Source: a virus
Taxonomy: Duplodnaviria > Caudoviricetes
Length of the DNA stretch: 64,000 bases
IMG/VR virus record: IMGVR_UViG_3300010429_000979
Span: 17,314-81,313 of that record
Reading direction: 5' to 3' (one strand)
Shown here in pieces: positions 6,905-27,412 of this stretch. The position numbers were made by a program, and so were the translations under genes. A model generated the notes under the pieces. That model saw nothing but the letters and a program-made list of their open reading frames with translations. It had not been told where the DNA came from and searched no databases. Positions within the stretch are counted from its first letter, which is position 1. Every line of letters begins with the position of its first letter.

Positions 6905-7157
6905 CCTATATTCAGATGCTTACCTGATATCATACAGAGAAGGTGATTTCTCATTAGAGAGAACGCCTAAGACAATCATCTATAATACAGAACCTAAGCT
7001 CTACACGGTAAGTGAAGGAGAACTACTTACTGATATCGCTTTTAGGGAATTGAGAGATGTTGGAAAGTGGTATCTCATTGCATTATTTAATGGTATCATC
7101 GATCCTTTCATAGAAGCCGGTACCACTATCCTTATACCTCCAGTATATGGCCAATAG
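6888..7157 (+). CDS. LysM/P2 gpX-like baseplate protein
   Basis: YTVSEGELLTDIAFRELRDVGKWYLIALFNGIIDP LysM-like pattern. Confidence 0.75.
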   Translation: MQLMDNLYSDAYLISYREGDFSLERTPKTIIYNTEPKLYTVSEGELLTDIAFRELRDVGKWYLIALFNGIIDPFIEAGTTILIPPVYGQ

Positions 7158-9417: not shown

Positions 9418-10124
9418 CGATACAACAACTCATTAATCAAATAAAACTCTTTGGTTTAGAGATCCTCGGTAGGTATTACTCAGTCTATCGTGGCTTTGTT
9501 GTAAGTAACGAAGACTCATTAAACATGGGTAGGATATTGGTTATTGCTCCTTCAATCTTTGGCAAGAGATCCAATCCTCTTTGGGCATACCCAAAAAACG
9601 TTCCCAGCGGAAGCAATTATGGTATTCAGTGGCTACCTAAGAATGGTGAAATGGTATTCCTTGAGTTTGAATTTGGTGATCCAAAATTCCCAATCTGGTC
9701 TCATGGCTATCACCTCAAGGATGAACTTCCTATAGAATTCACAGATAAGAATGACATCCTTCTTAAAACACCATCCGGACATCTCATTCATATTAAGGAA
9801 GTCCCAACAGATAAGAATGGTGAAGAGAACCCAGATTATGGTTTCCTCATCAAACATAAAGATGGGATGACCCTCGAGATCAAAAAAGATGGTATATATC
9901 TTAATGGTAGCGAAAACAAGGGATTGGTAAAGATCACAGAACTCGTTGATAAGTTTAATCTCATCGAAGAGTGGATCCAACAATTTGCCATAGATTATAA
10001 TGCACATACCCACCCAGTACCATCATTAGGGACTTCAAGTCCTATCCTTCCAATTAACCAAATCACAGATACTCCAGTAAAGACTGAGATTGAAGATTTG
10101 GAAAATTCCAATATCAAACACTAA
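9411..10124 (+). CDS. Baseplate central spike (gpV/gp5 OB-fold)
   Basis: YRGFVVSNEDSLNMGRILV, LPKNGEMVFLEFEFGDPKFPIW and apex motif HTH (YNAHTHPVP). Confidence 0.85.
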   Translation: MVTIQQLINQIKLFGLEILGRYYSVYRGFVVSNEDSLNMGRILVIAPSIFGKRSNPLWAYPKNVPSGSNYGIQWLPKNGEMVFLEFEFGDPKFPIWSHGYHLKDELPIEFTDKNDILLKTPSGHLIHIKEVPTDKNGEENPDYGFLIKHKDGMTLEIKKDGIYLNGSENKGLVKITELVDKFNLIEEWIQQFAIDYNAHTHPVPSLGTSSPILPINQITDTPVKTEIEDLENSNIKH

Positions 10125-10507
10125 TGGAGAACTCAGGATTAATATTAGGAGAAGGCATCACTTTCCCATTCAACTTAATTAATGGTAAGGTGGCTGTTGA
10201 TAGTTCAAATGTTTGTATTGCTTCCTCGATCGTTAATATCTTGGGTTGGCCTACTGGAGATCGGTTATTCCAAAACCATTTCGGATCTAAATTATTCCAT
10301 CTCCTGAGTGAACCAAACGATGAAATTACAGCCACTCTAGCAAAGCACTTTATTATTGACGCATTAGAATTACATGAAAAGCGTATTCGTCTACTAGACG
10401 TGAAATTTAGCATCGAAAAAGCACATGAATTAACAATAGTTTTAATATACGAACTTTTATCAACTGGTAAAGTTATGACCTTACCGTTAACTATAACAAA
10501 CCTATAA
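10124..10507 (+). CDS. gp25/GPW-like baseplate wedge protein
   Basis: SIVNILGWPTGDRLFQNHFGSKL...ALELHEKRIRLLDV pattern. Confidence 0.85.
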   Translation: MENSGLILGEGITFPFNLINGKVAVDSSNVCIASSIVNILGWPTGDRLFQNHFGSKLFHLLSEPNDEITATLAKHFIIDALELHEKRIRLLDVKFSIEKAHELTIVLIYELLSTGKVMTLPLTITNL

Positions 10508-10508
10508 C

Positions 10509-12245
10509 ATGGCCAAGATAAATAATCCTTGGGTAAATTACGTTACTCGGTCTTTTTCTGATATAAAATCATCAGTACTGAACAGGGTAAAAACCCAATG
10601 CCCGGAAATAACAGACCTCAGTGATTCAAACATCCTCGTTATCATCATCAGTATCTTTGCAGGTATTGCTGAGATGTTGAATTACTACATTGACAACATG
10701 GCAAGGGAATCTTACATTGGCTCTGCTAGAAGGCTCTCTTCAATCCTTAAGATTGTCAGGCTGATCAATTACAAAGTAAAATCCTCAATCGCTGCTAGCT
10801 CTGACCTAACACTAAGTCTGGTTGGGGAAGATGGTAATCCAGTTGAAACCCAGTCACAGATAACTATCCCACTTGAAACCGTATTCTCAACTGCCTCGGG
10901 GTTAGTCTTTATCTCAACTGAGTCAGCCACTATTGAGATAGGGGAAACAGGTACAACAGTTAAGGTAAAACAACATACATTAGCAAGCCTCCAACTAATC
11001 GGTACAGGAAACGGTACTGCATTCCAATCAATCTACCTGCCTTCAGATTATGAACATGGCTCATGTGTAATTACTATAGACAGCGTAACCTGGACATACC
11101 GGGATTTCTTAGATGTCTCTGGGCCAACAGATAAGCATTACACCACAGAGGTTGATGATTATGGTTTAGCATATATCAAATTTGGAGATGGTGTTAACGG
11201 TCTTAAGCCCGATACAGGCCTAAGTATTTATCTTACCTACTACCGTACTTCAGGAGCATCTGGTAATTCAAACATAGATACGATCACCAGTATCGATTCC
11301 AATATTGCAATACCTAATCAGACTCCCGTTATTTCAGAGATACTGGCTACTAACCATATCGCTGCTTCAGGTGGCAGGGATACTGAAGGGTTAGAGGTTA
11401 TTAGGAAGTTAGCCCCACTCAGTCTAAGGACATTGAACAGGGCAGTAACTCGTCAGGATTATATTGACATAGCTAAGTTGGCTCCAGGAGTCGATAAGGC
11501 CAGCCTCTATTTCGAATGTGGTAAGAAGGTAGAGGTATACATAGCCCCGATGGGTGGAGGTGTTGCTTCTATCCAGCTATGTAATGACACTAATGATTTC
11601 ATCGATGAGAAGAAGATGGTTACTACTTTCGTATCAGTTCTTCCTACTGGTGAAACTTATATTGGTATGTCAATCTCAGTAACTGGCAAATTCCGGGTAC
11701 CATCTATCCTTATCGAACAGGACATCATCACTGAATTAACTCAGGCCTATTCCTATGTCAACAGTGATATCAATAAACCAGTAAGAACATCAGACATCAT
11801 TGCATTGGTTGATAACTTGGAGAAGATCGATTTCCTTGAACTGACAGAGATATATCAGATACCCTATGCAAGGCCTAAGGTTCAAACCTTACAGGAATTG
11901 GTATGGGAAAGAAAAGTAATGACTGGCTCAACCGATACTCATGAGTGGAGGTTAGTTTTTCAAGAAGAGCCAGTCTATGGCGATAGTTATTTCAGAGTAT
12001 ACCGGGATAAGGTCTGGAAGAAAAACCTGGCATTCGGTGATTGGTATGACCCCGCCCCAACATCTTTCACTGAATTGAATTTCCTAATCCTTGCTGCTGA
12101 TAACGCTGGCTTAGAGAATGGGGATACCTGGTTATTTAAAACTTACCCCTATAACAAGGACTTAGTCCTTACGGATTTCACTGTACCCATTATCAGGTCA
12201 CAGGATATCATTTTGACAATCACTGAACAAAACTACATCGTCTAA
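10509..12245 (+). CDS. Baseplate J-like wedge protein (T4 gp6-like)
   Basis: IKFGDGVNG, ASGGRDTEGLEVIRKLAP and RAVTRQDY motifs. Confidence 0.88.
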   Translation: MAKINNPWVNYVTRSFSDIKSSVLNRVKTQCPEITDLSDSNILVIIISIFAGIAEMLNYYIDNMARESYIGSARRLSSILKIVRLINYKVKSSIAASSDLTLSLVGEDGNPVETQSQITIPLETVFSTASGLVFISTESATIEIGETGTTVKVKQHTLASLQLIGTGNGTAFQSIYLPSDYEHGSCVITIDSVTWTYRDFLDVSGPTDKHYTTEVDDYGLAYIKFGDGVNGLKPDTGLSIYLTYYRTSGASGNSNIDTITSIDSNIAIPNQTPVISEILATNHIAASGGRDTEGLEVIRKLAPLSLRTLNRAVTRQDYIDIAKLAPGVDKASLYFECGKKVEVYIAPMGGGVASIQLCNDTNDFIDEKKMVTTFVSVLPTGETYIGMSISVTGKFRVPSILIEQDIITELTQAYSYVNSDINKPVRTSDIIALVDNLEKIDFLELTEIYQIPYARPKVQTLQELVWERKVMTGSTDTHEWRLVFQEEPVYGDSYFRVYRDKVWKKNLAFGDWYDPAPTSFTELNFLILAADNAGLENGDTWLFKTYPYNKDLVLTDFTVPIIRSQDIILTITEQNYIV

Positions 12246-12925
12246 TGGTTAATTTCACAAATTGGATATTCGATAGGTTTCCTCGGAGATTTAAAATCGA
12301 AGACTCTTATAAGGATGCCGATGGTAAAGGTCTCCTAGAAAGGATGATGGGTGTGATTGGTGATGAACTCGATGAAGAGATTATACCACTCATTGAAGAT
12401 TACCAAGTCCAACAAAACCCAATCACTTGCGATAGTAAGTTCATTAACCTTATCGCATTCTTTTATGGGAATCCTCCAAGTCCATTATCATACGAAGACC
12501 TATATAGGAAACTTCTGAGCAAGATAACAGAGGTCAATAAGATCAAAGGAACTGAAGCCTCATACGTTCTGTTCTTTAAACTTATTGGCCTTGATGTTGC
12601 TGTAAGGGAAGTACCATTGGTTGATTACAGATATGACAAGGATAACATTAGGTATGATAATAATGAACACCTAAGGTATGATATGAACTGCCCACCTTGT
12701 TCTGGTTACTATCTAGACATCCTAGACCATGATAACCTTTACCCAGAGTTCATCCACAACCCAATCGATCCAGAAATCTTTAAGCTCTTGATGTCCATGA
12801 TACGGTATTGCGAACCTATCAATGCTAGACTAATTGAGGTAACTTATGATGACACACCATTATACCTTGGAGGTAGCTATGATATCGATTATTCATTCAG
12901 CTATGACAGGATAAGAAGAAGATAA
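12245..12925 (+). CDS. Tail protein I-like baseplate wedge protein
   Basis: Follows the J-like gene; KIKGTEASYVLFFKLIG motif. Confidence 0.7.
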   Translation: MVNFTNWIFDRFPRRFKIEDSYKDADGKGLLERMMGVIGDELDEEIIPLIEDYQVQQNPITCDSKFINLIAFFYGNPPSPLSYEDLYRKLLSKITEVNKIKGTEASYVLFFKLIGLDVAVREVPLVDYRYDKDNIRYDNNEHLRYDMNCPPCSGYYLDILDHDNLYPEFIHNPIDPEIFKLLMSMIRYCEPINARLIEVTYDDTPLYLGGSYDIDYSFSYDRIRRR

Positions 12926-12926
12926 T

Positions 12927-13925
12927 ATGGCAAGGACACTAGACCAAAAATTCGCGGAATTAACTCTACTGATCAATAGTATCCTTGTTGTAAATGAGAC
13001 TGGCGATATTACCCCACCACGTCACAAATCGATAGTAAACAATTTTAAGGAACTCGTTCAGTGGTTAAAGGTATCTGAGAACTTAGATGCAGCAGATTAC
13101 GTTCAAGAAACAGAAATTGAGTGGAGTCGGTTAATCGTAGGGTTCACATTAGATAATGGTCATGTCTGTGAAAATGATGAGACAGTGTTACTCACAAACC
13201 AAACCAATCTCACAGAGAATGGTATCTGGCAAGTTCGGGTAGCAGGAGAACCAACCAGGCCTACTAACTTCACACCACTAGCCGACCAAGATGGTTGCAT
13301 GGTGCTGATAACCAAAAACATTGGAGAAGATAACTTTCTCTTTAAGATTCAGGTATCTGGTTATAAGGTACTTGTTTTCCCCTTAATCTGGTCATCAGGA
13401 GTAGGTCACTTACAGAATACAGATGTCTACTTAAATTACGGGGGTATCTTCCAAGTCTCTGCTCAAGAGATCTGGGAACATATCCATTCAACCATGTCAC
13501 CTCAGGAAATCGATATCACGGATTTAACTGAGATTGACCTTACCCCATACCCAGACGCAAGATACTTCCTACTCTATTCAACAAATGAACAGGAAATTAT
13601 CAGTAGCGTTATTGATAGTAACTCATCAGAGGGAAAACAAATAACCCTGAAGCCAAGAGATAATGGTTTATGGGTAATACTAAGGGAGGCTCTTGCAGAA
13701 GATACGCCTCTCAAACTTCTCACTGGAGTGGATTTCATTATGAAGGAGAAATCACATTACAGTGAATTCAGATTTACGAACGAGGCCTGGTCACAAGCTG
13801 CTGGACTCGGGATTAGAGATATAGTTATGATCGGGGAGAATTGGAGAATGCGTGATGTTAATGGTGCAATGGTTATAGAGAAATACGATAATGGTGATTG
13901 GGTTGAAATGTCAAATTTAAGTTAA
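12927..13925 (+). CDS. Tail-fibre-associated structural protein
   Basis: VLLTNQTNLTENGIWQV motif seen in phage fibre proteins; position after the baseplate. Confidence 0.55.
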   Translation: MARTLDQKFAELTLLINSILVVNETGDITPPRHKSIVNNFKELVQWLKVSENLDAADYVQETEIEWSRLIVGFTLDNGHVCENDETVLLTNQTNLTENGIWQVRVAGEPTRPTNFTPLADQDGCMVLITKNIGEDNFLFKIQVSGYKVLVFPLIWSSGVGHLQNTDVYLNYGGIFQVSAQEIWEHIHSTMSPQEIDITDLTEIDLTPYPDARYFLLYSTNEQEIISSVIDSNSSEGKQITLKPRDNGLWVILREALAEDTPLKLLTGVDFIMKEKSHYSEFRFTNEAWSQAAGLGIRDIVMIGENWRMRDVNGAMVIEKYDNGDWVEMSNLS

Positions 13926-13926
13926 T

Positions 13927-16900
13927 ATGAGAAAAATATTTTTCCTTATCTTATTCCTAGTACCTCTCCTGAGCTACTCCCAATATTATAAAGTAACCAG
14001 AAACCTCAATTCAGATGCGGGGTTTGTTGGTGTTAATACGAACACTGGCGATGGTGCTTCAGAAACGATAATGCTCATAAGAGATACAGATACAATGTAT
14101 ATGAGGATGGGTAAAGATTCATCATATATCTTTACCGAGAAGCCACTGTATTTCTTCGGAGAGTATTTACAGATACAGCAGGACTTCGTCCTTAAGAAGT
14201 TTGCTTCTTCAGATACAATGGTCCTGATTGTTAAACCAAATGGATATGTAGATACGATTAGTTTAACCAACCTATTCAATAGCGAATCTGGTACAGGAGG
14301 TATCTTTATATCATACTGTGATGGTTGTACTCCAGATACTGGATTTATCTTTCTCGGAGATACCCTTATTATAGATACTGCCGGCGGGTACTGTGAATCA
14401 TTCATCAGGAACGATACCCTATTCTCTTGTGACACTACAGTGATAGGGGCTACAGGATATTGGGCTAAGTATGATGGTATGTATCTCACTCCTAAACAAG
14501 GAGAGAATGTGGTAATTGGATCATCAGAGAAACGGCCCAGATCAAAGCTTAATGTTAATGGTGGTGTATTCGTAAGGAAATCAGTACACTCTTATGGAGG
14601 ATCAGGTGATGTTACCAGTAGTGGCGTTGGATCTGTTAATGCTGCAGATGCCCTAATTATCTCGAGATGGGTTAATGGCAGTATACCTTGGAACGATAGT
14701 TTATATGAGGCTGATGCTTCCGGGAATAATATCATCACGTACAATGAGGTTATTGGTCCTATGTTATTTTTTACTGGTCAGATACCAGACCTTAAAGCTT
14801 GGGCCAGATGGGTAGAGGCTAATTCAGTACAACAGTTCAGAGACAGTACTACCTATATCTATAAGGGCCTTACAATCAGTCCAGCTAAAAGGGGATATAC
14901 CCAAGCCACGAGTTACGGAAACTCTGGCCTTTACGTTGATGGGAAAGTCTGGTTACCCACAGTAGGCCAAACAATAAAATTCGATAGTATCTATGTCCAA
15001 GATACTTCTGGTAAAGTAATGACAGTACACAAGAGCCTAGTAGCCCAAGCTAATGGTATAGATAGTTTATATATTGGATTCTGTAATGGCTGTACTCCTG
15101 ACTCAGGTTGGTATTATAATGGCGACTCATTAATCATTGATACAGTAGATAGGTACTGTCCCACGTATTATGCCAATGATACCCTATATGGTTGCGATAC
15201 AGTAGCTCTTTCAATGAACGGATACTGGGTAAAGGCCGGAGATCTACTATTCCCCTATCAACCCCAATTAGCCGTTCGGATTGGTCCTGCGAATTATATG
15301 CCATCTGCTTCGCTATTTGTAAACTCCGTCAGTGGTACTAGCTTGATCTCACAAACGAACTCAAGTTATGGTAGCTCTGTTTCTGCACAAAATCAAAATA
15401 CCACTGGTGGTGCAGGTATAACTGCTGGGGGTTATATAGGTGTAAGTGGTGGTACCACAAGTAATACTGGTTTAGGGGGATACTTTACAAATTGGCAACC
15501 AGAACCCAGTCGGCCAGTAGTAGAGATACATTCTAACGGTGGTAAGGGCTTATTCTTTAATTTGGCTAATTCTGGCTCATACCCAATCTCAGGTGAAGGT
15601 ATCTTATTACAAAGGGGGGCAACTGGGACAAACACAATTTCCGGAACGGGTTTTAAAATAAAACAAGTTAATATTGATAATCCCCTGAATGTGACTGGTT
15701 ACATGTCAGAATATTATAAGGGGAACACCAGAGTTTCATCAGTTGACGTGAATGGAAATACTTATGCAAGAGGAACCATGAAGGTGGGGAATATGCCTAT
15801 CCTATCTGGTACAACTGATACAGCAGTAGTCTGGGATTATAATGACAGCACATATAAACTTAGGAAGGTCGCCGGTGGTACTGTTGGGGCATTAACTTAT
15901 GCTGACACACTTACTGATATCGCTACACAATATGATTTAACACAAGTAATCAGTATCGAATCAGACCCAATCTGGATTTCAGATAGCATTGATTACCTGC
16001 ATAAATCAGATACAAATACCAAGGTGTCAAGCCGTTACTGGGTTAATAACCAGGGATTCCTGAAAGTAGAAGGTGATGCTTCTGTATCTAATGAAGGTTC
16101 TTTGAATGTCATTACCACTAACACCTATCCATCAATCAACAGTAACACCTCTGGAAGTACACCAATCGAGATAAGGAATGGTCCAGCTGTAGGATTAACA
16201 TGGAACAACCCCGGTAATTATATTAAGATAGATATCGATACCACTAACATTATCCTTTCAAAACAGCTAGCATCTAGAACATATCAGAAAATTACTGACA
16301 CATCTACGAAGGATGCCACAAGGTATTGGGTAGGACAACAAGGATTCTTAGTTAGCGAGGTTGATGGCTCTACCTCAAATGAGATCCAGAACCTTTCATA
16401 TAACTCATCAACTCATGCCATCGATATCGATAAAGCAGGGACTTCTGCTATTATACCATTAGCCACAACATCAAATAGCGGATTGCTTACATCGGCTCAA
16501 GCTACTATCCTATATAGCGATAGTATAAAGTGGGCTGCTAAAAAGGATTATGGATTTGCTGATGTAACAGAAACCACGATCTCATTCAATGATGCTACCC
16601 ATATCTTTACTCTTGCACCAGTCAGTACCACATGGACCTATATGAGAGCAGGTAAGGTATATACGATTACTGGAAGTAAGACAGTTAACCTTGATGATTC
16701 ACCAGGGGGATTGGTTAATGGCTCAACCTACTTCATTATCATCGACAATACAACAGGAACTCTTACAGCCTCAACAGATGCCTGGACACTAGCAGATACC
16801 AAAGTTCCGGTAGCTACGATCAGATGGCATGGTGGACGCTATCCTAAATACTTTCTAGCAGAGGAAAGGCATCAAGCTGGATTCGGTAGGATGGTACATA

Positions 16901-19900
16901 GGAACCTTCACTTCACCAGGGGGGCTCAGATGGTATCCGGGGGATTGGTTGCTGATGCTATTGTTAGTGGTACAACGAATGATGATAACACAATTAGCAT
17001 AACCGATGCTACTATAGCTGATGAGGATTTATTTATTCTTGCAACGTCATTACCTGATGGTGATGGTGCTGGAGGTGACTATCTTACCATGTATCATAAT
17101 GGTGGTAGTTGGACATGGGACACTACGGATATGCCCTATAAGTTTGCTGCTGGTGGATATATCTATTACGATAACGGAACTGATAGTGTAGTAGGGGGTA
17201 ATAACAAATTCTATAACTCATATCTTGCTATCACTGACTGGGTAGGACAAGGCAGGCATATCATCTTTCTAGGTCGTGGAGAATTCAATTCGGCCACTGC
17301 AGCATATTCAGAGAACCCCTTTAACTTTGATTGGACCGGTATACCTATTCAGGAAATCGTTACCATTTATCAGATGACCTGGGAAAGTGGTAATGCCTAC
17401 ACTACAAAGGGTAAGGTAAGACTTACTAGATTACCTCAAAGGTTATTCGGAACGATCTCTACTACTGTGGGGAGTACACCAACCGTAGTTGCCAATACTC
17501 CACTCTATGGAAATGGTAGCACGGGATCACCATTAAGTATCGATACATTATCTGGACAAGGAGTTGCAACACAATACGATCTTGCTATCCACACACAACC
17601 CATAAGCAGGGTTACTGGTTTGCAGGATAGTTTAACTCGCATCCATGATACTATCGATAACTATATCCCAAAATATATCGTTGACGCAGCTGGCGATTTA
17701 GTCGTGGGAACGGGGAATAATACCATCAAGAGGTTAGCAAGAGGCTCAGCTGATCAGGTCCTCAAGGTTAATGCGGGTGGTACTGATATAGAGTGGGGAG
17801 CTGCAGCAGCTTCAATGGTTTATCCGGGAGCGGGTATACCAGTAAGTACTGGGTCAGCATGGACCACCTCGATAACCAATAACTCCGCAAATTGGAATAC
17901 CGCATACGGTTGGGGAAACCATGCGTCAGCAGGTTATGATAACAGTGTTACCAATGAGGGTAGCTTATCTGTAGGTTCGGGAACTGGCTCAACAAGTGTA
18001 ATAAACAGTAACACAAGTAGCAGTACCGGGATAACTTTGACAGCCGGAACCGGTTTAGGTATTGCAGAAAATGTTGGAGCATATTCCATAACACTGACCA
18101 ATACCAGCCCAGACAAAACAGTTAGCTTAACAAATGGTACTGCTATAAGTATCACCGGTACATACCCAAGTTTTACAATTAATAACTCTAGCCCTGACCA
18201 AATCGTTGCCCTGACTAACGGTACTGGTATAAGCATTACCGGTACTTATCCAAATTTTACTGTAACAAACCTTGTCCCAGACAGTTCATCTAAATATATT
18301 CCTAAATATGTGATAGACGCTGCAGGAGATCTGATAGTTGGTACCGGGAATAATACCTTAAATAGGTTGGCTAAAGGAAATGCTCTGCAAATCCTAAGAG
18401 TCAATTCTGGAGGTACAGCATTGGAATGGGCTGATGTTGCAGCAGGTGGGGTAACATCAGTATCTGGAACATCACCAGTAGTATCATCAGGGGGGAATAC
18501 TCCAGCCATCTCGATCAATTCAGATACCCTCACATCCTGGAGAGGGAAACAGAATCATGGGGAAACTGCTTATGGTTGGGGAAATTGGGCAGGACATACC
18601 CAAGCCATCTCAACAGTAAGAGGGTTGCAGGATAGTTTAACGGATAAGATCAATAGTATCAATGATATTGGTACTGGCCCAGGAAAGGTATTCCATTCTG
18701 AATCCGGTGGAAATGTTTACCTACGTTCAATCTATGGAGGAACTGGTATAGCTGTTGTTAATATGCCAAACTATATCGAGGTATATAATAATGGGGTAAC
18801 AGGTTTATCAGGAACATCGCCTATCGCTGTCAGTGCCAGTACTGGATCTATCGCTGTTTCGATCAAGGCTGATACCTTGACTTCCTGGAGAGGAAAACAA
18901 AACCACGGAGAGACGGCATTTGGCTGGGGTAATCATGCAAGTGCAGGATATTTAACATCACAAACATCTCATACAGATGTGGTAGTGGATGGAGACTTTA
19001 CCTCAGAGGGGCTAATGAAAAGGGGAGCTAGTGGAGGTACTTATTCAATCGTAACTGATAACTCTGCTAACTGGAATACAGCATACGGCTGGGGAAATTG
19101 GGCAGGTCATACCCAAGCTATATCCACTGTGACAGGTTTACAAGATAGCCTTACCCGTATCCATGATACCATTGATAATTATATCCCGAAACATATCATC
19201 GATGCTGCAGGCGATTTAATCGTGGGATCATCTAATAATGTCCCAGTAAAACTAGCTAAGGGTAATGCATTACAAACTCTTAGAGTAAATTCTGGTGGGA
19301 CTGCTCTAGAGTGGGCTGATCCAAAACAGTACTGGACACTGGGAGGTAATGTAGTCTCATTAGATCCGAACTACGAATTAGAGATGGTCAATTCGGCACA
19401 GGGTACTTCACTGGTACGTATCAGTAATGATGTTGCCTCAGTTGAAGATGGCGGACATTCCAGAGGGCTTCAAATAGAGATACCAGCAGATAACACCCAA
19501 AGAACCTTTACATACATACGATACGGTTTATATATTAGTAACTTAGCTGAGAAGAACCATCAAGTTGGTATTTACAATACCTCACAACTTAGCCCCACTT
19601 CGACCAATTACGTGGGGTATCAGGGATACATAGCTGGTCAGAATGGAAGAACTATGCTACTTACAGGTGGCTCTCCAACATTCGAAGTATCAAATGCCCC
19701 GTATACTGCCGCAAAGATAAGTGGTCACCTTAACTTCAGTTATGCAGGAGGAGGAGGAGCTTCAACATTTGATAGCGTCTGGGTGAAATCAACAGTATCT
19801 CCGTATAACACTTACCTTGTCCATAAATCATTGATAGGTACTGGTAGTGGGTTAGCTTGGTCAGATACCTTAACTAAGATTGCTACGGCCTATGATCTAA

Positions 19901-22191
19901 GTCAAATATCTACTTCAGGAGTTCCAGCAGATAGTATTCCATTAATTAGGAACTCCGCCAGAGGAGTTTCCTATCTCCGCAATATCAATGATAGTGTAGG
20001 ATTGGGTACCATAACTCCGCAGGCAAGGTTAGACGTTAATGGTTGGTTAAAGGTAAGGAAAGTTCCAGTAGCCTCCACAGCTGATAGTATGCTGACAATA
20101 GAGAATGGAATTTTTAAATCAATCAACTACCTTAATCTTGGTTTTGTATTTTCTAATCAACTATATAGTGCAAGATGTGCTAATGTCCCCAAGTTCTACC
20201 ACAACCTCATGCATAACAAACTGTTTCGTGGTGGTGATAGGTTTTCTACTTCTTTTTCTGGTATGGGTTCAACAAGTGCAGCATACTTATTTGATGGATT
20301 CCACGAAAGATATAGTAATAATACTATTTCTGCTAATGCTACAGGAGTAATTACAACTAACTTATCCACATATTCTGAGTATAATGCCAGTAATGGTATT
20401 ATTTATCCTCAAGGTAGATTTGTTATGAATTTTTATTTTCCAGATGGAGTTAATGATGTTGCTCCACAAAGAGTTAAAATAGAAATGTATAAATCAGGTG
20501 GGGTAAATCAATGGATGACAGTTGCTGACACAAATAATATCCCTGCAACTACTGCTATACTAGACCTTTGGTATTGGGGTGGTGGAAATTATGTTACTCA
20601 AATAAAATGGACTATCTATGGTAGAACATCTGGAACTGTAAGACTTGAAGAGTTAGAATATTACCCACATAGGGATGCAGATGACTTAAATAAAACACCA
20701 ACAGTAAATAAATACACCGATCAATCATTATACGGTACTTGGACATGGCGTGGAAGTTCTAATACTGCGAATACTTCTTTTGGTGCAAATCCAGGATATA
20801 CAACCAACTCCTTTGTAGTGGGAAATAGCACTGGAACAGGTAGATTACATGTAAAAGGTGCAGGTAATACCTCATCTACATGGACATCACAATTCCATAA
20901 TTCAGCAGGAAATAACAATGCCTTTATGATTAGGGATGATGGTTACATAGGTATTGGTACTGCTTCTCCTACAAGTTTCTTGCACATGATTAAAACTAAT
21001 CCTGCAACAGGAAATTTTTATGGTGGGTTTATTGATATTACCTCAGCAGGAACTACAGGTGAACAATCAGGGTTATCTATAGCCATGAAAGCTGGAGCAA
21101 CAGGTAATACAATTGCAACTTATGGTTTTGGTGCTTCAAATAACTCAACATCAAGTGGGAATAGCTTAACGAATGGACAAGATGGATATTCAATGAGAGC
21201 GGGTTATGCTAATTTAGGTGGATATGCTTATGCCATAGGAACAAACACAGGTCAGAATTATGGTGGAGAATTCTTTGCAGGAAATGCAAGTAGAAACATA
21301 GGCTCATTCAATTCTGCAACAGTAGCCAAAGCATCTGCTACTAATATTGGTACATTCTCAGTAGCCAGGAATACTAATGCTACTTCAACTGTTCAAATAG
21401 GCGGATACTTCACATTACTTGATTCTAATGCTATGCCAACCTTTGAATCAGCAGCCTTGATAGCAGATAATGCAGGAACCACTTCACCCATATTCTTGGC
21501 AAGGGATAGAGGAACTACAGTATTCTCAATTAATGATGGTGGAGGGGTAGTGGCTGGCGGCAAGTCAATAATTTTAGGGAATACTGGGACAACGAGATTT
21601 AACATACTTAGCTCAGGTGGTTATCCAAGACTTGAATCCACAAAAACTGATGGTACCATAACAACCCAATGGATAACAGATCCAGCAGCCGGGAGATCAA
21701 TCTTTGATTACTCTTACACATTACATGGAGCCAATACTGGATTCGCTATTCGATCAACCATTAATGATGATAATGCAACGGTATTTTCCGTAAGGGATTC
21801 AGATGGTGATATGGTATTATCTAATGGCGGTTATATAAATGCTAAAGGATACCTGGTTGCAGAGAAGACTTTCACTTACGATGGCCTTAATTCAAATACG
21901 ATATCTGCCAGTGCCTGTACCGTTGATTGGACTAGTGGCAACCTTCAATCAGTCACACTGAACTCGAATGTAACTTTTACCTTCACAGCCCCTACAGGAC
22001 CATCACATCTAACATTGAAGATAACTCATGCTGCCAATACCACTACCTATACTACTACATGGCCTGCTTCAGTTAAATGGCCAGGAGGTACAGCCTATGC
22101 TTCCACTTCAACTTCAGGTGCAGTGGATATCATTACATTCTTTTACGATGGGACTAACTATTATGCTATGCCTTCCAACGATTTTAAATAA
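13927..22191 (+). CDS. Giant (2754 aa) fibre/adhesin-like protein with N-terminal Sec signal peptide
   Basis: MRKIFFLILFLVPLLSYS|Q signal; GIGT-x-P-like fibre repeats; internal repeat modules; C-terminal VDWTSGNLQSVTL...VKWPGG...VDIITFFYDGTNYY domain typical of phage fibre tips. Confidence 0.75.
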   Translation: MRKIFFLILFLVPLLSYSQYYKVTRNLNSDAGFVGVNTNTGDGASETIMLIRDTDTMYMRMGKDSSYIFTEKPLYFFGEYLQIQQDFVLKKFASSDTMVLIVKPNGYVDTISLTNLFNSESGTGGIFISYCDGCTPDTGFIFLGDTLIIDTAGGYCESFIRNDTLFSCDTTVIGATGYWAKYDGMYLTPKQGENVVIGSSEKRPRSKLNVNGGVFVRKSVHSYGGSGDVTSSGVGSVNAADALIISRWVNGSIPWNDSLYEADASGNNIITYNEVIGPMLFFTGQIPDLKAWARWVEANSVQQFRDSTTYIYKGLTISPAKRGYTQATSYGNSGLYVDGKVWLPTVGQTIKFDSIYVQDTSGKVMTVHKSLVAQANGIDSLYIGFCNGCTPDSGWYYNGDSLIIDTVDRYCPTYYANDTLYGCDTVALSMNGYWVKAGDLLFPYQPQLAVRIGPANYMPSASLFVNSVSGTSLISQTNSSYGSSVSAQNQNTTGGAGITAGGYIGVSGGTTSNTGLGGYFTNWQPEPSRPVVEIHSNGGKGLFFNLANSGSYPISGEGILLQRGATGTNTISGTGFKIKQVNIDNPLNVTGYMSEYYKGNTRVSSVDVNGNTYARGTMKVGNMPILSGTTDTAVVWDYNDSTYKLRKVAGGTVGALTYADTLTDIATQYDLTQVISIESDPIWISDSIDYLHKSDTNTKVSSRYWVNNQGFLKVEGDASVSNEGSLNVITTNTYPSINSNTSGSTPIEIRNGPAVGLTWNNPGNYIKIDIDTTNIILSKQLASRTYQKITDTSTKDATRYWVGQQGFLVSEVDGSTSNEIQNLSYNSSTHAIDIDKAGTSAIIPLATTSNSGLLTSAQATILYSDSIKWAAKKDYGFADVTETTISFNDATHIFTLAPVSTTWTYMRAGKVYTITGSKTVNLDDSPGGLVNGSTYFIIIDNTTGTLTASTDAWTLADTKVPVATIRWHGGRYPKYFLAEERHQAGFGRMVHRNLHFTRGAQMVSGGLVADAIVSGTTNDDNTISITDATIADEDLFILATSLPDGDGAGGDYLTMYHNGGSWTWDTTDMPYKFAAGGYIYYDNGTDSVVGGNNKFYNSYLAITDWVGQGRHIIFLGRGEFNSATAAYSENPFNFDWTGIPIQEIVTIYQMTWESGNAYTTKGKVRLTRLPQRLFGTISTTVGSTPTVVANTPLYGNGSTGSPLSIDTLSGQGVATQYDLAIHTQPISRVTGLQDSLTRIHDTIDNYIPKYIVDAAGDLVVGTGNNTIKRLARGSADQVLKVNAGGTDIEWGAAAASMVYPGAGIPVSTGSAWTTSITNNSANWNTAYGWGNHASAGYDNSVTNEGSLSVGSGTGSTSVINSNTSSSTGITLTAGTGLGIAENVGAYSITLTNTSPDKTVSLTNGTAISITGTYPSFTINNSSPDQIVALTNGTGISITGTYPNFTVTNLVPDSSSKYIPKYVIDAAGDLIVGTGNNTLNRLAKGNALQILRVNSGGTALEWADVAAGGVTSVSGTSPVVSSGGNTPAISINSDTLTSWRGKQNHGETAYGWGNWAGHTQAISTVRGLQDSLTDKINSINDIGTGPGKVFHSESGGNVYLRSIYGGTGIAVVNMPNYIEVYNNGVTGLSGTSPIAVSASTGSIAVSIKADTLTSWRGKQNHGETAFGWGNHASAGYLTSQTSHTDVVVDGDFTSEGLMKRGASGGTYSIVTDNSANWNTAYGWGNWAGHTQAISTVTGLQDSLTRIHDTIDNYIPKHIIDAAGDLIVGSSNNVPVKLAKGNALQTLRVNSGGTALEWADPKQYWTLGGNVVSLDPNYELEMVNSAQGTSLVRISNDVASVEDGGHSRGLQIEIPADNTQRTFTYIRYGLYISNLAEKNHQVGIYNTSQLSPTSTNYVGYQGYIAGQNGRTMLLTGGSPTFEVSNAPYTAAKISGHLNFSYAGGGGASTFDSVWVKSTVSPYNTYLVHKSLIGTGSGLAWSDTLTKIATAYDLSQISTSGVPADSIPLIRNSARGVSYLRNINDSVGLGTITPQARLDVNGWLKVRKVPVASTADSMLTIENGIFKSINYLNLGFVFSNQLYSARCANVPKFYHNLMHNKLFRGGDRFSTSFSGMGSTSAAYLFDGFHERYSNNTISANATGVITTNLSTYSEYNASNGIIYPQGRFVMNFYFPDGVNDVAPQRVKIEMYKSGGVNQWMTVADTNNIPATTAILDLWYWGGGNYVTQIKWTIYGRTSGTVRLEELEYYPHRDADDLNKTPTVNKYTDQSLYGTWTWRGSSNTANTSFGANPGYTTNSFVVGNSTGTGRLHVKGAGNTSSTWTSQFHNSAGNNNAFMIRDDGYIGIGTASPTSFLHMIKTNPATGNFYGGFIDITSAGTTGEQSGLSIAMKAGATGNTIATYGFGASNNSTSSGNSLTNGQDGYSMRAGYANLGGYAYAIGTNTGQNYGGEFFAGNASRNIGSFNSATVAKASATNIGTFSVARNTNATSTVQIGGYFTLLDSNAMPTFESAALIADNAGTTSPIFLARDRGTTVFSINDGGGVVAGGKSIILGNTGTTRFNILSSGGYPRLESTKTDGTITTQWITDPAAGRSIFDYSYTLHGANTGFAIRSTINDDNATVFSVRDSDGDMVLSNGGYINAKGYLVAEKTFTYDGLNSNTISASACTVDWTSGNLQSVTLNSNVTFTFTAPTGPSHLTLKITHAANTTTYTTTWPASVKWPGGTAYASTSTSGAVDIITFFYDGTNYYAMPSNDFK

Positions 22192-22787
22192 TGAGATACC
22201 TACTTTCACTTCTTCTCTTTCTTAGCCTAACTGCATCTGGCCAGTTATACCAAAGTGGAAATCCCACTCAGTCAGTCGACGATGCAGGCTTCGGTCAATA
22301 TGCCTGGTCAGGAAATTTCAACGATGGCTTTTATTCTGCAAATTGTACCATATCAACTGAATCATCTACATATACCCATCGGTTAATCCTAACTCATACG
22401 GATATCGCTATTCCTGCTGGGGCTATCATAAAGGGTGTAGAAGTAACAACCTATGTCCAGGCTTTTCAGTTTGGTCACATCACTGAAAACTGTAGTGATA
22501 TCTGCTGTTATAGTTACACAGTAGCCCTGACTTCTCCAGGATTCCTTACCTATAAAACTGGAGTTGGTTTTATACCAGGAGATTACACAGAGCAGATCTA
22601 CGGTGGTCCTACAGATTTATGGAGCATTTCTATGAATCACAACGACATCAACAGCGATGACTTTGGTATTTACTTTATTGCTCAGACCAAATCATACCAA
22701 GGATTTAACGCTTCAGTAAGACTCTGGGGAGCAACGATAAAAGTATACTACGAATTACCAAAAACAAATATATTCTTTGGACGCTAA
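22191..22787 (+). CDS. Secreted beta-rich protein, possible fibre-tip partner
   Basis: MRYLLSLLLFLSLTASG|Q signal peptide; translationally coupled to the giant gene (TAATG overlap). Confidence 0.6.
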   Translation: MRYLLSLLLFLSLTASGQLYQSGNPTQSVDDAGFGQYAWSGNFNDGFYSANCTISTESSTYTHRLILTHTDIAIPAGAIIKGVEVTTYVQAFQFGHITENCSDICCYSYTVALTSPGFLTYKTGVGFIPGDYTEQIYGGPTDLWSISMNHNDINSDDFGIYFIAQTKSYQGFNASVRLWGATIKVYYELPKTNIFFGR

Positions 22788-22798
22788 TAAATAAAAAC

Positions 22799-23224
22799 AT
22801 GAAAAAGACAATCCTTATCATCATGATTATCCTCGCTGGGTTCTCAGTGAATGCCCAGTATTCAATTCAGAAAGTGACCTTGTATGATACCACAAGAGCT
22901 GATGGTCAACGATTCATCATCTCATATCCTGAGAAGAATCTCGTAATCCATTTACAGGACAGCTGCTTGGGTACAGACTATAACCCTTTCAATGCCTGTG
23001 CTGTCCCAAGTGGTTATATCAGCCTTCAAAATTCTAGGGTCGATGTTGTTATGAAAAAGGTTAGGATCCTAGCTGGTGACACTTTAATCAGGTATGAAAC
23101 TATAACCATTCCATTGTCTCGATTAGAAAATAAGACGGGCCAATTTATAGACAACTCACTTATGAAAAAAGCCTTAAAGCCAACAGCTAAGGGATGGATA
23201 AAAAGAAAGTTAAGCGAAGAATAA
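22799..23224 (+). CDS. Secreted hypothetical protein
   Basis: MKKTILIIMIILAGFSVNA|Q signal peptide. Confidence 0.65.
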   Translation: MKKTILIIMIILAGFSVNAQYSIQKVTLYDTTRADGQRFIISYPEKNLVIHLQDSCLGTDYNPFNACAVPSGYISLQNSRVDVVMKKVRILAGDTLIRYETITIPLSRLENKTGQFIDNSLMKKALKPTAKGWIKRKLSEE

Positions 23225-23266: not shown

Positions 23267-23674
23267 ATGGATTCAACGATATCAACTGCACTGGAAAAAG
23301 TCGATAAGATCGAGGAAACATTAAAAAGCTTCCGTACCCTATTCACTGCTTTTGAACCTGGGTTTATCAAGATGGCAGATGATAACTCAAGGAAAGCTTT
23401 TGGCCTTATGACCAAAAGAGATGACTATGAAATCTATGAATTGGATATTGAGAAGGACTTCTGCACAATCCATCATGCTCACAAATTAGCCTACGAACTT
23501 CACTTAGTCATTCATGGCAAAGTTAATATCAAACAAGATGGCCATGATAACATCCTTTCAACTGGTCAATCGCTAACCACTTCCAAGGGTCTACTCCATA
23601 CGTTCATTGCGTTGGAAGACACGAAAATAGTTACCATCGCAGTCCCAACCTTAAACGAAAAACATGGAGATTAA
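23267..23674 (+). CDS. Cupin-domain protein
   Basis: HHAHKLAYELHLVIHGKV...LSTGQSLTTSKGLLHTFIALEDT matches cupin motifs 1 and 2. Confidence 0.8.
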   Translation: MDSTISTALEKVDKIEETLKSFRTLFTAFEPGFIKMADDNSRKAFGLMTKRDDYEIYELDIEKDFCTIHHAHKLAYELHLVIHGKVNIKQDGHDNILSTGQSLTTSKGLLHTFIALEDTKIVTIAVPTLNEKHGD

Positions 23675-23891
23675 AAACAGTGAACAAGACAACTGGGCAG
23701 CACACAGACTGATGGTCTTAAAAGCCTTAGATAGTATCGAGGATCAGGTAGCAGAATTACGTAAGGATATCTCCGAAGTAAAAACTGCAGTAACCGTGAT
23801 GAAAACTCAATCAGCAATGGTAGGGGTAATTATCGGTATCATCGTTTCAGCTGCTGTGACCATCTTCATTAACCTCATCGCTAAGCATTAA
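23664..23891 (+). CDS. Putative holin-like protein (coiled coil plus C-terminal TM)
   Basis: 75 aa; single C-terminal hydrophobic helix; located in the lysis region. Confidence 0.5.
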   Translation: MEIKNSEQDNWAAHRLMVLKALDSIEDQVAELRKDISEVKTAVTVMKTQSAMVGVIIGIIVSAAVTIFINLIAKH

Positions 23892-23933
23892 CTATTCTAG
23901 TTATTGACTATTCACTAACAAATAAATAATCCT

Positions 23934-24221
23934 ATGAAAAGATTCCTTTTTGCATTAACCTTACTCCTGTCGATCATGGTATTACCATTGTTCACTATCG
24001 CACAGGCAGTAGTCGACACCTCCGCCATTAGCCCTGCACCATCGCAAGGGGCTTCTATATTGGATTGGATCTACTGGTCAGCAATCATCATTGCCACTGT
24101 CATCTACCCGATTCTCGTTCGACTTATCCCCACTTCGAAGAACTGGGACTGGATCTCTGGCATTATGAGATTATTATCTTGGCTGGTACCAAACAATAAA
24201 AAAGGCGGAGGTAAACACTAA
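23934..24221 (+). CDS. Membrane protein, possible holin/antiholin
   Basis: Signal peptide ...TIA|Q, further hydrophobic segments and a basic C-terminus. Confidence 0.5.
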   Translation: MKRFLFALTLLLSIMVLPLFTIAQAVVDTSAISPAPSQGASILDWIYWSAIIIATVIYPILVRLIPTSKNWDWISGIMRLLSWLVPNNKKGGGKH

Positions 24222-24643
24222 TGGCCGAAAGCCTAATTCTCGTCGAAAGGTTTCTCAAGAGCGATCAACAAACTCTTGGGAAACTTTCCGTTATAAATAG
24301 TGGACAAGTCACCTTCACATGCCTAACCCAAGAATTACCTTGGAAGGATAATCAACAAAGGATTTCCTGCATACCAATTGGCAATTACAGGTATGGTAAA
24401 AACAAAGCCTCAACGAAAGTCAAATATCCTCATGTGGATATCTATGATGTCCCGAACAGGGGAGGGGTAAAGATTCATGCAGGTAACTACGTAACACAGA
24501 TCTTAGGTTGCATCGAGGTTGGGAAAGAGCATCTGGATATTAATAAGGATGGTCTCAACGATGTCACTGAAAGTAGGGTAACTCTTAAGGCATTACTAAA
24601 ACATTTAACTCCAACCGGCTCAATCCAAATCAGTGAAACCTAA
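24221..24643 (+). CDS. DUF5675-like protein, putative endolysin/cell-wall enzyme
   Basis: TLGKL...TQELPWKDNQQRISCIPIGNY...VPNRGGVKIHAGN...GCIEVG pattern. Confidence 0.75.
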   Translation: MAESLILVERFLKSDQQTLGKLSVINSGQVTFTCLTQELPWKDNQQRISCIPIGNYRYGKNKASTKVKYPHVDIYDVPNRGGVKIHAGNYVTQILGCIEVGKEHLDINKDGLNDVTESRVTLKALLKHLTPTGSIQISET

Positions 24644-25067
24644 AGACGCAATCACCATACTGAAGGGAGCACCATATATCCCTTACATCATAATCCTGGT
24701 TCTCCTTCTCATTATTGGATTCAGAGAATCAAGTAGCACCCACTACTTCAACCAACTCATTGGAGAGAAACAGAAAGAGATCGATAGCCTATTCAATGAG
24801 AATAAGAAACTCCAAGACTCTACCCTATTCTGGGAATATCGATCAGTAGAATTCCAAGAAGGTATCATCGAAAGGGAAAAACAAATTGCACTCCTCAGAA
24901 AACAAATCTGGATAATAAATAAAAAACATGAAGCAAGTATCCATTCTCTTACTTATCTTAACGATAACGATCAGGTTAAGTTTTTCACAAACTACGTCAC
25001 CAAGTACATACAGTCAGCTGGATACTCTGGTGACAGTGAATATGAAACTAATCCGAGGGGCAAATGA
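24633..25067 (+). CDS. Putative i-spanin-like protein
   Basis: N-terminal TM plus coiled coil; GTG start; follows the lysin candidate. Confidence 0.55.
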   Translation: MKPKDAITILKGAPYIPYIIILVLLLIIGFRESSSTHYFNQLIGEKQKEIDSLFNENKKLQDSTLFWEYRSVEFQEGIIEREKQIALLRKQIWIINKKHEASIHSLTYLNDNDQVKFFTNYVTKYIQSAGYSGDSEYETNPRGK

Positions 25068-25463: not shown

Positions 25464-26786
25464 ATGACTCAATTCAGGACAACAGAATTTCAAAATTTAA
25501 TCGAATCATATCCCCTGAATAGGGCTAGAGTTGCGCTATTTCCAAAGGGTAGATATCATGGATTCGATAGGATTGCTCGTAGGGCTGGGGTACCAACAGT
25601 ACCAACTTCAATCCTGATTGATCTCAATCACAGTGGCAGTCCTTTCTATCCTGTCCTTGAAACGAATACTCCAGGCCCTGCAACTGGCGTAGTGGTAGCT
25701 CCAGTGGGGGCTCTACTTATGTCAGATGATGCATATCAGTTCGAGATTGATGAGAACACAGATGGACAAGGAAGAACTCGATACGATACAATTTATGTAT
25801 CATACAGCTGGGAACAAATCGAAGATGGTGCTCCTTTCTCAGTAGAGATGATTAAGGGATCTCCCGGATCAGTATTCCCCGCAGTATCAGATCCAAACAC
25901 AGATCTGATAGTTGGAGTTATCTCAGTCCCCTCTTTACCTACTGGTACTCTAACATTTGAAGATCTCACATATACTGAGACTGTAATACCAGGAGTTGGT
26001 TATCAGGACCCCAATAACTACGTCCCAGATTCTGGTGGTACATTCAATGGCCCGATCACTATGCAGGATATGCTTACCCTGTATGGTTACTTTAAAACCT
26101 ATCCCGATACCGCAGTCATCGATGGGACTATCATACAGTGTAATGATAATGGCTTCTATCATGTTGTAGACCTTAACAACATGGCAACAGTCCTTGATCA
26201 AGTCCAACATAATACAGATGAGATTACATTGGGAACTGTGTTATGGATCAAGTTCAATAACGTTGGTGCTGGCTCTTACCTAAAGAATCAGTATCCAGCA
26301 ACAATCAACTGTATCGTTAATCCTTCAACCACCCACTTGTATCTCGAATCGGGTTGTATTGTTGGGTTTATCAAAACGAACTCAGCCACTGCAAACCATG
26401 TATGGCAAGTCCTTACGATCATGAAAAAGGATTTCGTACATAACTTCTATAACATCACACCTACCGCAGCTTGGACCCAAGACTTTCCAAGAGCTGCTGC
26501 CTCTGTTAATACCCAGAACAATACCGTTATCTTGAAAGGCCACTTATCAAAGGCTTCACCATCTACGGTAACTGGTATTGCAATCCAGGTTGGAGAACTG
26601 CCAAACGCCAATCTCTATCCACAATATCCAATCTTCTTCCCTGTACCGGTAAATGAAAGTGGGGACATGGGAACTATAGAGATACTGGCTAACGGTACGA
26701 TTAACCTCTATGCAACTGGGTCATACCAAATGACAATAACGATGGTATCATTCGATGGGATTTCCTATCAAACGAAAGAATGGTAA
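25464..26786 (+). CDS. Putative tail fibre/virion structural protein
   Basis: 440 aa beta-rich; YVPDSGGTFNGPITM and a C-terminal VGELPNANLYP domain resemble fibre proteins. Confidence 0.5.
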   Translation: MTQFRTTEFQNLIESYPLNRARVALFPKGRYHGFDRIARRAGVPTVPTSILIDLNHSGSPFYPVLETNTPGPATGVVVAPVGALLMSDDAYQFEIDENTDGQGRTRYDTIYVSYSWEQIEDGAPFSVEMIKGSPGSVFPAVSDPNTDLIVGVISVPSLPTGTLTFEDLTYTETVIPGVGYQDPNNYVPDSGGTFNGPITMQDMLTLYGYFKTYPDTAVIDGTIIQCNDNGFYHVVDLNNMATVLDQVQHNTDEITLGTVLWIKFNNVGAGSYLKNQYPATINCIVNPSTTHLYLESGCIVGFIKTNSATANHVWQVLTIMKKDFVHNFYNITPTAAWTQDFPRAAASVNTQNNTVILKGHLSKASPSTVTGIAIQVGELPNANLYPQYPIFFPVPVNESGDMGTIEILANGTINLYATGSYQMTITMVSFDGISYQTKEW

Positions 26787-27412
26787 GTTAGGAAATAAGA
26801 TTTTGCTTCTTCGATTGCTTCCTTGATTTCCCGGCGGGCTCTGGATATATAATCCAGGGCCCTTTTCGTTTGATCTATCCCCAGAAATTCAAGGATGATA
26901 TGAGAAGGGATATGAGAATTGCTAGAAGGCAATTTATCAAGGATATAAAGGGGAGGGTGTAATTCAATTTCAAAGATTTGATAGGCCTCTTCACTAATCC
27001 TTTTCTTAATAAATTCTAAGGCAAGGTTAAGGAAGATCTCCTTCTCATCCAATTCTGTTTGATCCGGGATGATATTAACTAGCGGGTATTCATCGATGCT
27101 AATATTATTAGCATATAACTCTACGTACTCGGCAGTGTATGCCTTTCTGAGAATCCTATTTTTAAAGTTTTGCAGGGAATTAATAATGTGGCCAAGCAAT
27201 ACTTTTTCATCAACCTTATCGTGATACTTATTAAATGCATAAATAAATTTATCATCGAACCATGAAAGCACTTGATCCTTTGTTACACCATATCTCCGAT
27301 GATCGATATGATAAGTTAAACTCTTTCTTAGGTTTTCTGTCCTTTTGTAAAGGTCATTGAATAATGCACGGTCATAGTTGTCAGACATAGGTTTAAGTCG
27401 GTGTAATTCCAT
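26768..27412 (-). CDS. Putative sigma-factor-like/transcription regulator
   Basis: Only convincing minus-strand gene; helical, with weak sigma region-2-like segment (WFDDKFIYAFNKY...INSLQNFKNRILRK) and a C-terminal HTH-like segment. Confidence 0.5.
   Translation of the reverse strand: MELHRLKPMSDNYDRALFNDLYKRTENLRKSLTYHIDHRRYGVTKDQVLSWFDDKFIYAFNKYHDKVDEKVLLGHIINSLQNFKNRILRKAYTAEYVELYANNISIDEYPLVNIIPDQTELDEKEIFLNLALEFIKKRISEEAYQIFEIELHPPLYILDKLPSSNSHIPSHIILEFLGIDQTKRALDYISRARREIKEAIEEAKSYFLTYHSFV

Follow-up and report, generated by a model that had tools for sequence, protein, structure and literature searches.

The giant tail-fibre-like protein P0001 (2754 aa), encoded among the tail genes of a phage of the class Caudoviricetes, begins with a bacterial signal peptide followed by glutamine and is strongly enriched in the O-glycosylation sequon of Bacteroidota, and the two features go together among its homologues. 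Its gene lies at positions 13927-22191 of the window, by which we mean the whole stretch of 64,000 nucleotides analyzed here, corresponding to bases 17314-81313 of the record IMGVR_UViG_3300010429_000979 (81,313 bp, 127-bp direct terminal repeats, rated complete). From the sequence features set out below, we consider it likely that P0001 is exported from the cytoplasm and O-glycosylated; the place where the giant fibre matures is very probably the periplasm and not the cytoplasm. That it is exported through Sec and then fitted onto the phage particle at lysis has, in our judgment, about an even chance.

The leader of P0001 has the three-part organization of a Sec substrate. Residues 1-18 (MRKIFFLILFLVPLLSYS) divide into MRK, IFFLILFLVPLL and SYS, providing two basic residues, a 12-residue hydrophobic core (mean Kyte-Doolittle value 3.2-3.7) and a c-region with Ser at both -3 and -1. 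Cleavage by signal peptidase I (SPase I) is predicted directly before Gln19 (13981-13983), where the sequence continues QYYK. The hallmarks of Sec/SPase I substrates (a basic n-region, an h-region of 10-15 residues and small residues at -3 and -1) are all present, as is Gln at +1. Signal peptides were called throughout by explicit rules for the n-, h- and c-regions. The earlier note had read this N-terminus as a typical signal peptide followed by Gln; the rule-based check confirms it, and the same arrangement recurs in the next two open reading frames (ORFs) and in the closest homologues. Within the phage genome, five of the six leader-like N-termini have Gln at +1, one of them probably being the first transmembrane (TM) segment of a holin. 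Gln at +1 of Sec/SPase I substrates, the Q-rule, is specific to Bacteroidota (PMC5837995). Because the phage genome has Gln(+1) leaders and the rule is restricted to that phylum, we infer a Bacteroidota host. Other export signals were sought as well. P0001 has no lipobox and its first Cys is residue 131; with no Cys at +1, a bacterial lipoprotein processed by signal peptidase II was ruled out. The C-terminal sorting domain of the type IX secretion system (T9SS; Por_Secre_tail/TIGR04183, type B) gave no match in P0001 with Pfam or NCBIfam at E<=0.1 or 0.01, and none in five homologues with NCBIfam. T9SS cargo was rejected on this ground, the C-terminus resembling a phage fibre tip. With a lipobox and a T9SS C-terminal domain both looked for and not found, the default destination of P0001 would be the periplasm.

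O-glycosylation in Bacteroidota acts on proteins outside the cytoplasm. We counted the sequon D-(S/T)-(A/I/L/V/M/T) 36 times in P0001, against 12.7±3.3 in shuffled sequences (z ~7), and none of 5000 shuffles reached 36. The last 700 aa contain no sequon at all. Shuffling inside windows of 30 or 60 residues keeps the enrichment (z 6.7-7.0), and the residues A/I/L/V/M/T follow D-(S/T) in 73.5% of cases, compared with a background of 39.4%. Related control motifs are flat, and D-(S/T) followed by any other residue is depleted. P0001 thus has the sequons on a periplasm-exposed protein that mark an O-glycosylation substrate, the exposure being deduced from its leader. No other protein of at least 150 aa in this phage is enriched, save one leaderless outlier of 170 aa from the head-to-tail region (L004:16178-16690, upstream of the window), with four sequons where 0.8 are expected (z 3.7); it is the sole other outlier among ~56 proteins and, given so many tests, may reflect chance. 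The general O-glycosylation system is found across the phylum, and its known substrates are cellular envelope proteins (PMC5837995, PMC10653852).

An exhaustive profile-free search with residues 1-1200 returned 1322 proteins, the best 150 of which were used for the leader and sequon counts; almost all of these 150 match the domain at aa 867-1190. Most homologues of this domain have N-termini of the phage-fibre type. Classical leaders are found in nine among the best 150, including the three best matches, with Gln at +1 in seven of the nine. Because these leaders are unrelated to one another in sequence, what appears to be conserved is the leader as a property, not its sequence. Among these homologues, sequon enrichment is confined to those with a leader: it is observed in five of the nine leader-bearing homologues and in none of the 140 leaderless ones (Fisher p=2e-7). 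The z values are 6.0 for P0002, 7.5 for P0003, 8.5 for P0007, 3.6 for P0033 and 6.1 for P0087, compared with a mean of -0.6 and a maximum of 2.6 for the leaderless group. Neither 20 leaderless relatives from viral and genome contigs nor the leaderless fibres of Bacteroidota phages are enriched (B40-8, z 0.7; phi38:1, z 0.0 and -1.3; a 636-aa protein of L025, z -0.6). Since this coupling of sequon and leader is hard to explain otherwise, glycosylation acting outside the cytoplasm, we consider it likely that the leader-bearing fibres are exported. Judged by its presence in the next two ORFs and in homologues and by its co-occurrence with sequons, the signal peptide is not a product of chance. 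Directly after its endolysin, the cultured Bacteroides phage B40-8 (L028) also encodes a 201-aa protein with an N-terminal TM segment (15801-16406), in which five sequons stand where 0.8 would be expected (z 4.8); in this phage, O-glycosylation may also reach a periplasmic lysis protein.

The closest leader-bearing homologues are P0002, P0003, P0007, P0033 and P0087, and those whose loci were examined sit in phage tail modules. The gene for P0007 follows a tape measure gene, and its product matches tailspike and virion-structural PHROGs. P0033 is encoded in the tail module of a temperate phage whose integrase is of Bacteroidota type, and a Peptidase_S74 intramolecular chaperone domain forms its C-terminal end; two further leader-plus-Gln proteins come after it, and then lysis-like genes. 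Runs of leader-plus-Gln genes at the distal end of the tail module, right before the lysis genes, recur in the loci L030, L031 and L032, with five consecutive leader-like genes in L031 (four with Gln at +1) and two consecutive leader-plus-Gln genes in L032. In the tail-module stretches of L030 and L003 that were examined, every fibre or tailspike candidate seen is a leader-bearing protein. In L031 (1-7358), the leader gene block comes after a protein of >3791 aa with matches to InPase and RadC domains, which is probably a giant polyvalent virion protein. Scans of genome and viral contigs with the domain at aa 867-1190 returned leaderless relatives only, which served as negative controls, and scans with P0003 and P0087 gave no matches.

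In sequence, the giant protein is fibre-like, with a fibre tip, repeats and an internal domain that is possibly shoulder-like at its start. Two fibre-type motifs quoted in the earlier note, SVGLGTITPQARLDVNGW and GYIGIGTASPTSFLHM, are both present, and the fibre-tip-like C-terminus that it described is borne out by matches of aa 2646-2744 to PHROG 9017 'tail fiber protein' (E 9.7e-6) and to a 'putative tail fiber' of phage MW202476 (36.5% identity, E 1e-6). Its placement of the gene in the tail-fibre slot after the baseplate genes is correct by gene order, though the slot is variable in the nearest relatives. The internal domain at aa 867-1190 was modeled with AlphaFold2 (AF2) from an alignment of 50 sequences (pLDDT, the predicted local distance difference test score, 93.4). 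The first ~125 aa of the model align over ~100 residues to the 'shoulder' domains of receptor-binding proteins (RBPs) and TssK, with VIA-align Z scores of 5.3-7.0, which at ~7 at best lie below the level clear of background (phage 1358 RBP, 7.0; BPP-1 Mtd, 6.9; TssK, 6.4; A-1(L) fibre, 6.2; HFTV1 fibre, 6.0; phage p2 RBP, 5.6). The resemblance of the start of this domain to the RBP shoulder fold is suggestive rather than decisive, and Foldseek found only weak matches of the model to the phi812 baseplate in the PDB. The N-terminus is the usual docking end of a fibre. In many leaderless homologues the domain stands at the very N-terminus, whereas in P0001 it is internal, behind the leader and ~850 residues. 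Across the 50 homologues, residues E114, H116, H129 and D166 (domain numbering) are invariant and R115, H125, E167 and D168 nearly so. This conservation points to a possible metal or catalytic site in the domain, for which no enzyme fold that would match came up.

The two 4-Cys modules that lie between the leader and this domain are ~40% identical with the same Cys spacing, and hold eight of the ten Cys of P0001. A related Cys-rich module is found in P0002, just behind its own leader, and among the proteins compared it is common to these two only. Word-indexed searches with the N-terminal 500-600 residues, at near and shorter lengths, returned P0001 alone; a scan of viral contigs gave no match for this part and the ESM Atlas no lead (0.76), and AF2 prediction of aa 19-500 without an alignment yielded no usable fold (pLDDT 31.8). 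Pfam and NCBIfam assigned the giant protein to no family. We had the impression of a dockerin-like stretch at ~aa 225-300 and of a carbohydrate-binding-like domain at ~aa 2080-2260.

By its gene content the phage is a lytic myovirus, carrying polymerase, helicase, primase and nucleotide-metabolism genes and no integrase (Table 1). With an integrase absent and its own replication genes present, we ruled out that P0001 is a prophage moron expressed from a lysogen. The ATG of the giant gene lies 1 nt past the stop of the preceding ORF, and the last base of the giant gene's stop codon is also the first of the next ORF (ATAATGAG). Because starts and stops are coupled in this way and the only strong terminator-like hairpin found, which closes the late operon, lies at 26836-26862 (+), the gene is placed in a translationally coupled late tail operon. 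The gpI-like gene is the last tail gene conserved with relatives, and the 332-aa protein between it and P0001 is a candidate adaptor by inference only. By the J-like protein, the nearest database relatives are uncultured human-gut 'Phage DP' contigs (34-37% identity). The only minus-strand gene of the region (26768-27412) converges on the late operon at the same, bidirectional-looking hairpin, and the 'Phage DP' relatives L025 and L026 have the same gene in this position. Elsewhere in the genome, a 114-aa protein with AFS before its Gln and two adjoining TM proteins are encoded on the minus strand (L004, genome positions 5978-7039), and a 132-aa Cys-rich protein with a leader and no Gln at +1 at 55550-55948 of the window; these small leader or TM proteins are possibly envelope-directed early or accessory proteins.

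Table 1. Positions of the features discussed, in window coordinates unless stated otherwise
Feature	Position	Strand	Basis or remark
Terminase, portal, protease, major head protein	upstream of window		PHROG scan
Sheath	732-2564		PHROG scan
Tube	2584-3069		PHROG scan
Tape measure	4074-6074		PHROG scan
Hub-like protein	7147-9417		PHROG scan
gp25/W-like protein	10124-10507		PHROG scan
gp6/J-like protein	10509-12245		PHROG scan
gpI-like baseplate protein, leaderless	12245-12925	+	E 4e-11 to L025; homologous to the protein after J in related phages
332-aa leaderless protein, function unassigned	12927-13925	+	coupled to giant gene
Giant tail-fibre-like protein P0001, 2754 aa	13927-22191	+	open reading frame
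Predicted signal peptide, aa 1-18 (MRKIFFLILFLVPLLSYS)	13927-13980	+	n/h/c regions
Sequon-rich part, aa 55-2055, all 36 motifs	14089-20091	+	
4-Cys module copy 1, aa 99-226 (Cys 131/134/156/168)	14221-14604	+	
4-Cys module copy 2, aa 355-484 (Cys 386/389/411/423)	14989-15378	+	
Internal repeats, aa 600-860	15724-16506	+	similar ones in P0007
Widespread phage-fibre domain, aa 867-1190	16525-17496	+	invariant E-x-H, H, D
Fibre-type sequence repeats, aa 1175-1850	17449-19476	+	self-comparison of protein cut into segments
Tail-fibre tip domain, aa 2646-2744	21862-22158	+	
Putative co-exported 198-aa protein, several Cys	22191-22787	+	leader MRYLLSLLLFLSLTASG, then Gln
Putative co-exported 141-aa protein, 2 Cys	22799-23224	+	leader MKKTILIIMIILAGFSVNA, then Gln
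Lysis-like cassette	23664-25067	+	directly after exported-protein block
440-aa leaderless protein	25464-26786	+	RBP-like neighbours in ESM Atlas, scores 0.84-0.87, below the 0.9 trust level

What follows the leader-bearing genes is a probable lysis cassette. It consists of a 75-aa protein with a C-terminal TM segment, a holin-like 95-aa protein with three hydrophobic TM-like segments, a DUF5675 protein (24221-24643; PF18925, E 9.5e-24) at the expected place of the endolysin, and a spanin-like 144-aa protein with an N-terminal TM segment and a coiled coil (24633-25067); no lipoprotein o-spanin was seen in the cassette. The 95-aa ORF (23934-24221) had been considered as a further leader protein and was rejected, its two additional TM-like segments making the supposed leader more likely the first TM segment of a holin. 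A cupin-domain protein (23267-23674; PF07883, E 7e-7) is encoded between the exported proteins and the lysis genes.

We propose that this fibre-type protein would be made late, together with the baseplate, and that its leader would route it through the host Sec translocon. SPase I would cut before Gln19, and a host glutaminyl cyclase would turn the new N-terminus into pyroglutamate. In the periplasm, the general O-glycosylation system of the host would decorate the sequons of the first 2050 residues, and the two 4-Cys modules could form disulfides. The two small leader-bearing neighbours would take the same route and probably aid the folding or docking of the fibre. Finally, once the holin breached the inner membrane at lysis, the protease-hardened fibre would meet the fibre-less particle built in the cytoplasm and dock on the baseplate, possibly via its internal shoulder-like domain. 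What the data show are the sequence features and how they go together among homologues; cleavage and glycosylation are conjectural, and late docking most of all. Late addition of fibres is biochemically possible, as in vitro complementation of tailspike-less or fibre-less particles demonstrates, and the fibre architecture of the protein, the coupling of its translation to baseplate genes and the size of the gene, 8.3 kb or ~10% of a lytic genome, speak for a virion role.

An exported and glycosylated P0001 may instead never join the virion, staying in the periplasm or reaching the infected cell's surface or vesicles. In such a place it could bind or mask the receptor glycans of the phage itself, thereby excluding superinfection or preventing new virions from being caught on debris; it could also serve as an adhesin or decoy. 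All the evidence for export applies equally to this explanation. It also draws on the variable slot and the absence of the gene from the nearest relatives, on the leaderless 440-aa RBP-like candidate encoded near the end of the operon, on Bdellovibrio, which has exported fibre-like proteins on its cell surface, and on the Q-rule proteins of Porphyromonas gingivalis phages, proposed to modify the host envelope (PMC10367356). We nevertheless hold it rather unlikely. It fits poorly with so large an investment in a gene translationally coupled to baseplate genes, with the loci L030 and L003, whose sole fibre or tailspike candidates bear leaders, and, for surface display, with the lack of any T9SS C-terminal domain or lipobox found. 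It also has to accommodate Cellulophaga phage phi18:3 (NC_021794, Pachyviridae), in which gp085, gp086 and gp087 each have a Bacteroidota-type signal peptide followed by Gln and are annotated in the record as virion structural or tail proteins 'based on experimental MS/MS proteomics analysis', that is, by tandem mass spectrometry. By analogy, this annotation favours incorporation of the exported fibre into the virion. Of what the earlier note had claimed, export with maturation outside the cytoplasm is strongly supported by the functionally conserved leader, the Gln at +1, the sequons, the co-exported neighbours and the paired 4-Cys modules. Its two proposed fates, joining the virion or serving as a surface adhesin or decoy, are not separable by sequence; phi18:3 and the tail-module position of the homologues favour the former, and with no T9SS C-terminal domain or lipobox found a surface location is the less likely.

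It is also conceivable that the hydrophobic N-terminus stays uncleaved, either as an inner-membrane anchor by which fibre or baseplate assembly is tethered from the cytoplasmic side or as a buried structural segment, and that the fibre folds in the cytoplasm, where tailed-phage assembly takes place in every studied case. We regard this as improbable, for it leaves unexplained the Gln at +1 in the giant protein, in both its neighbours and in most of the leader-bearing homologues, the small residues at -3 and -1, and a periplasm-specific sequon enrichment confined to homologues with a leader. A wrongly assigned start codon, with translation from a later Met and the leader never translated, is extremely unlikely and was rejected: the ATG stands only 1 nt past the upstream stop, a start at the next in-frame Met, residue 49, would leave 144 nt of open gap encoding a perfect leader by coincidence, and independent homologues also start with leaders.

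Several points weigh against the late fitting of an exported fibre. For tailed phages, no route is known by which a protein of the periplasm gets onto a particle built in the cytoplasm, and the time between holin action and dispersal is short. The 'Phage DP' relatives have no giant-type gene in their tail-fibre slot, and the leaderless 440-aa protein is, as a weak lead, a candidate for a conventional RBP; because of these two observations, the fibre may be one that the phage can do without or that is no part of the virion. The sequon count of P0001 is raised somewhat by internal repeats, its 36 motifs standing in ~32 distinct contexts, and four leader-bearing homologues (P0056, P0083, P0106 and P0108) are not enriched. 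The low scores of the shoulder matches belong here as well. As for phi18:3, its three proteins show no sequon enrichment (z -1.2 to -1.5) and no significant sequence similarity to the giant protein, and they are possibly contaminants that co-purified with the virions.

The proposal can be stated for more than one phage. Many Bacteroidota phages of several kinds (myo-, sipho-, podo- and crAss-like) may send their recognition fibres via Sec to the periplasm, where Gln is cyclised and the fibre O-glycosylated and oxidised, and fit them after the inner membrane is breached; we advance this tentatively, giving it slightly less than even credence. If true, it would add to the all-cytoplasmic textbook view of morphogenesis a new step timed with lysis, amounting to a two-compartment assembly pathway and a host-glycan coat not known for any tailed phage; were the two-compartment assembly proven, the mechanism itself would be new. 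It would explain how phages of gut and soil might protect their most exposed parts, by hardening or camouflage, from proteases and immune recognition. It would also bear on host-range engineering and heterologous production of Bacteroidota phages, as fibres made in the cytoplasm or in Escherichia coli would be without the modifications, and it would make a leader combined with sequon density a cheap marker of Bacteroidota hosts for metagenomic phages. The idea can be tested in culturable systems such as Cellulophaga phage phi18:3. Taken singly, each element is already known, from tail fibres, the Q-rule and general O-glycosylation to the Q-rule proteins that P. gingivalis phages encode (PMC10367356). 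A full-text literature search found no paper describing leader-bearing tail fibres of Bacteroidota phages, and in the literature found neither the combination of leader and sequons on a tail-fibre protein nor the recurring block of leader genes before the lysis cassette is described. P0001, from a myovirus, is the largest leader-bearing fibre protein seen in this analysis.

Among known systems, phi18:3 offers a parallel in gene order: like the block of the giant gene, gp085-gp087 are consecutive late genes at the end of the tail genes and just upstream of the lysis genes. It differs in being a podovirus, with proteins of 547-785 aa, and in the papers searched its leaders are not discussed. P0001 shares its leader architecture, Gln at +1 and high sequon density with the Q-rule and O-glycosylation substrates of Bacteroidota (PMC5837995, PMC10653852), which are envelope proteins, whereas P0001 is a phage fibre in a tail operon. 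The Q-rule proteins of P. gingivalis phages are small, have no assigned function and are not fibres (PMC10367356). With the conventional long tail fibres and RBPs of myoviruses (P2 gpH, T4 gp34-37) and the RBP shoulders of lactococcal phages p2 and 1358, BPP-1 Mtd and TssK of the type VI secretion system, the giant protein has in common its position after the gpJ/gpI-like baseplate genes, repeats and a tip, and a possible resemblance to the shoulder fold; those proteins, however, are leaderless, assemble in the cytoplasm and carry their docking domain at the N-terminus, while the putative one of P0001 is internal. The MAT fibres of Bdellovibrio bacteriovorus are phage-fibre-like trimers that bear a signal peptide and, in some cases, an S74 chaperone domain (PMC10769870). 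Like the giant protein, to which we compare them by description, they join fibre type and signal peptide; they share the S74 domain with P0033, and they fold after export. Their genes lie on the chromosome of a predatory bacterium, which displays the fibres on its own surface or vesicle; they belong to no virus, and an O-glycosylation sequon signal is not reported for them. By analogy, the MAT fibres indicate that a signal peptide and display outside the cytoplasm are possible for trimeric fibres of phage type.

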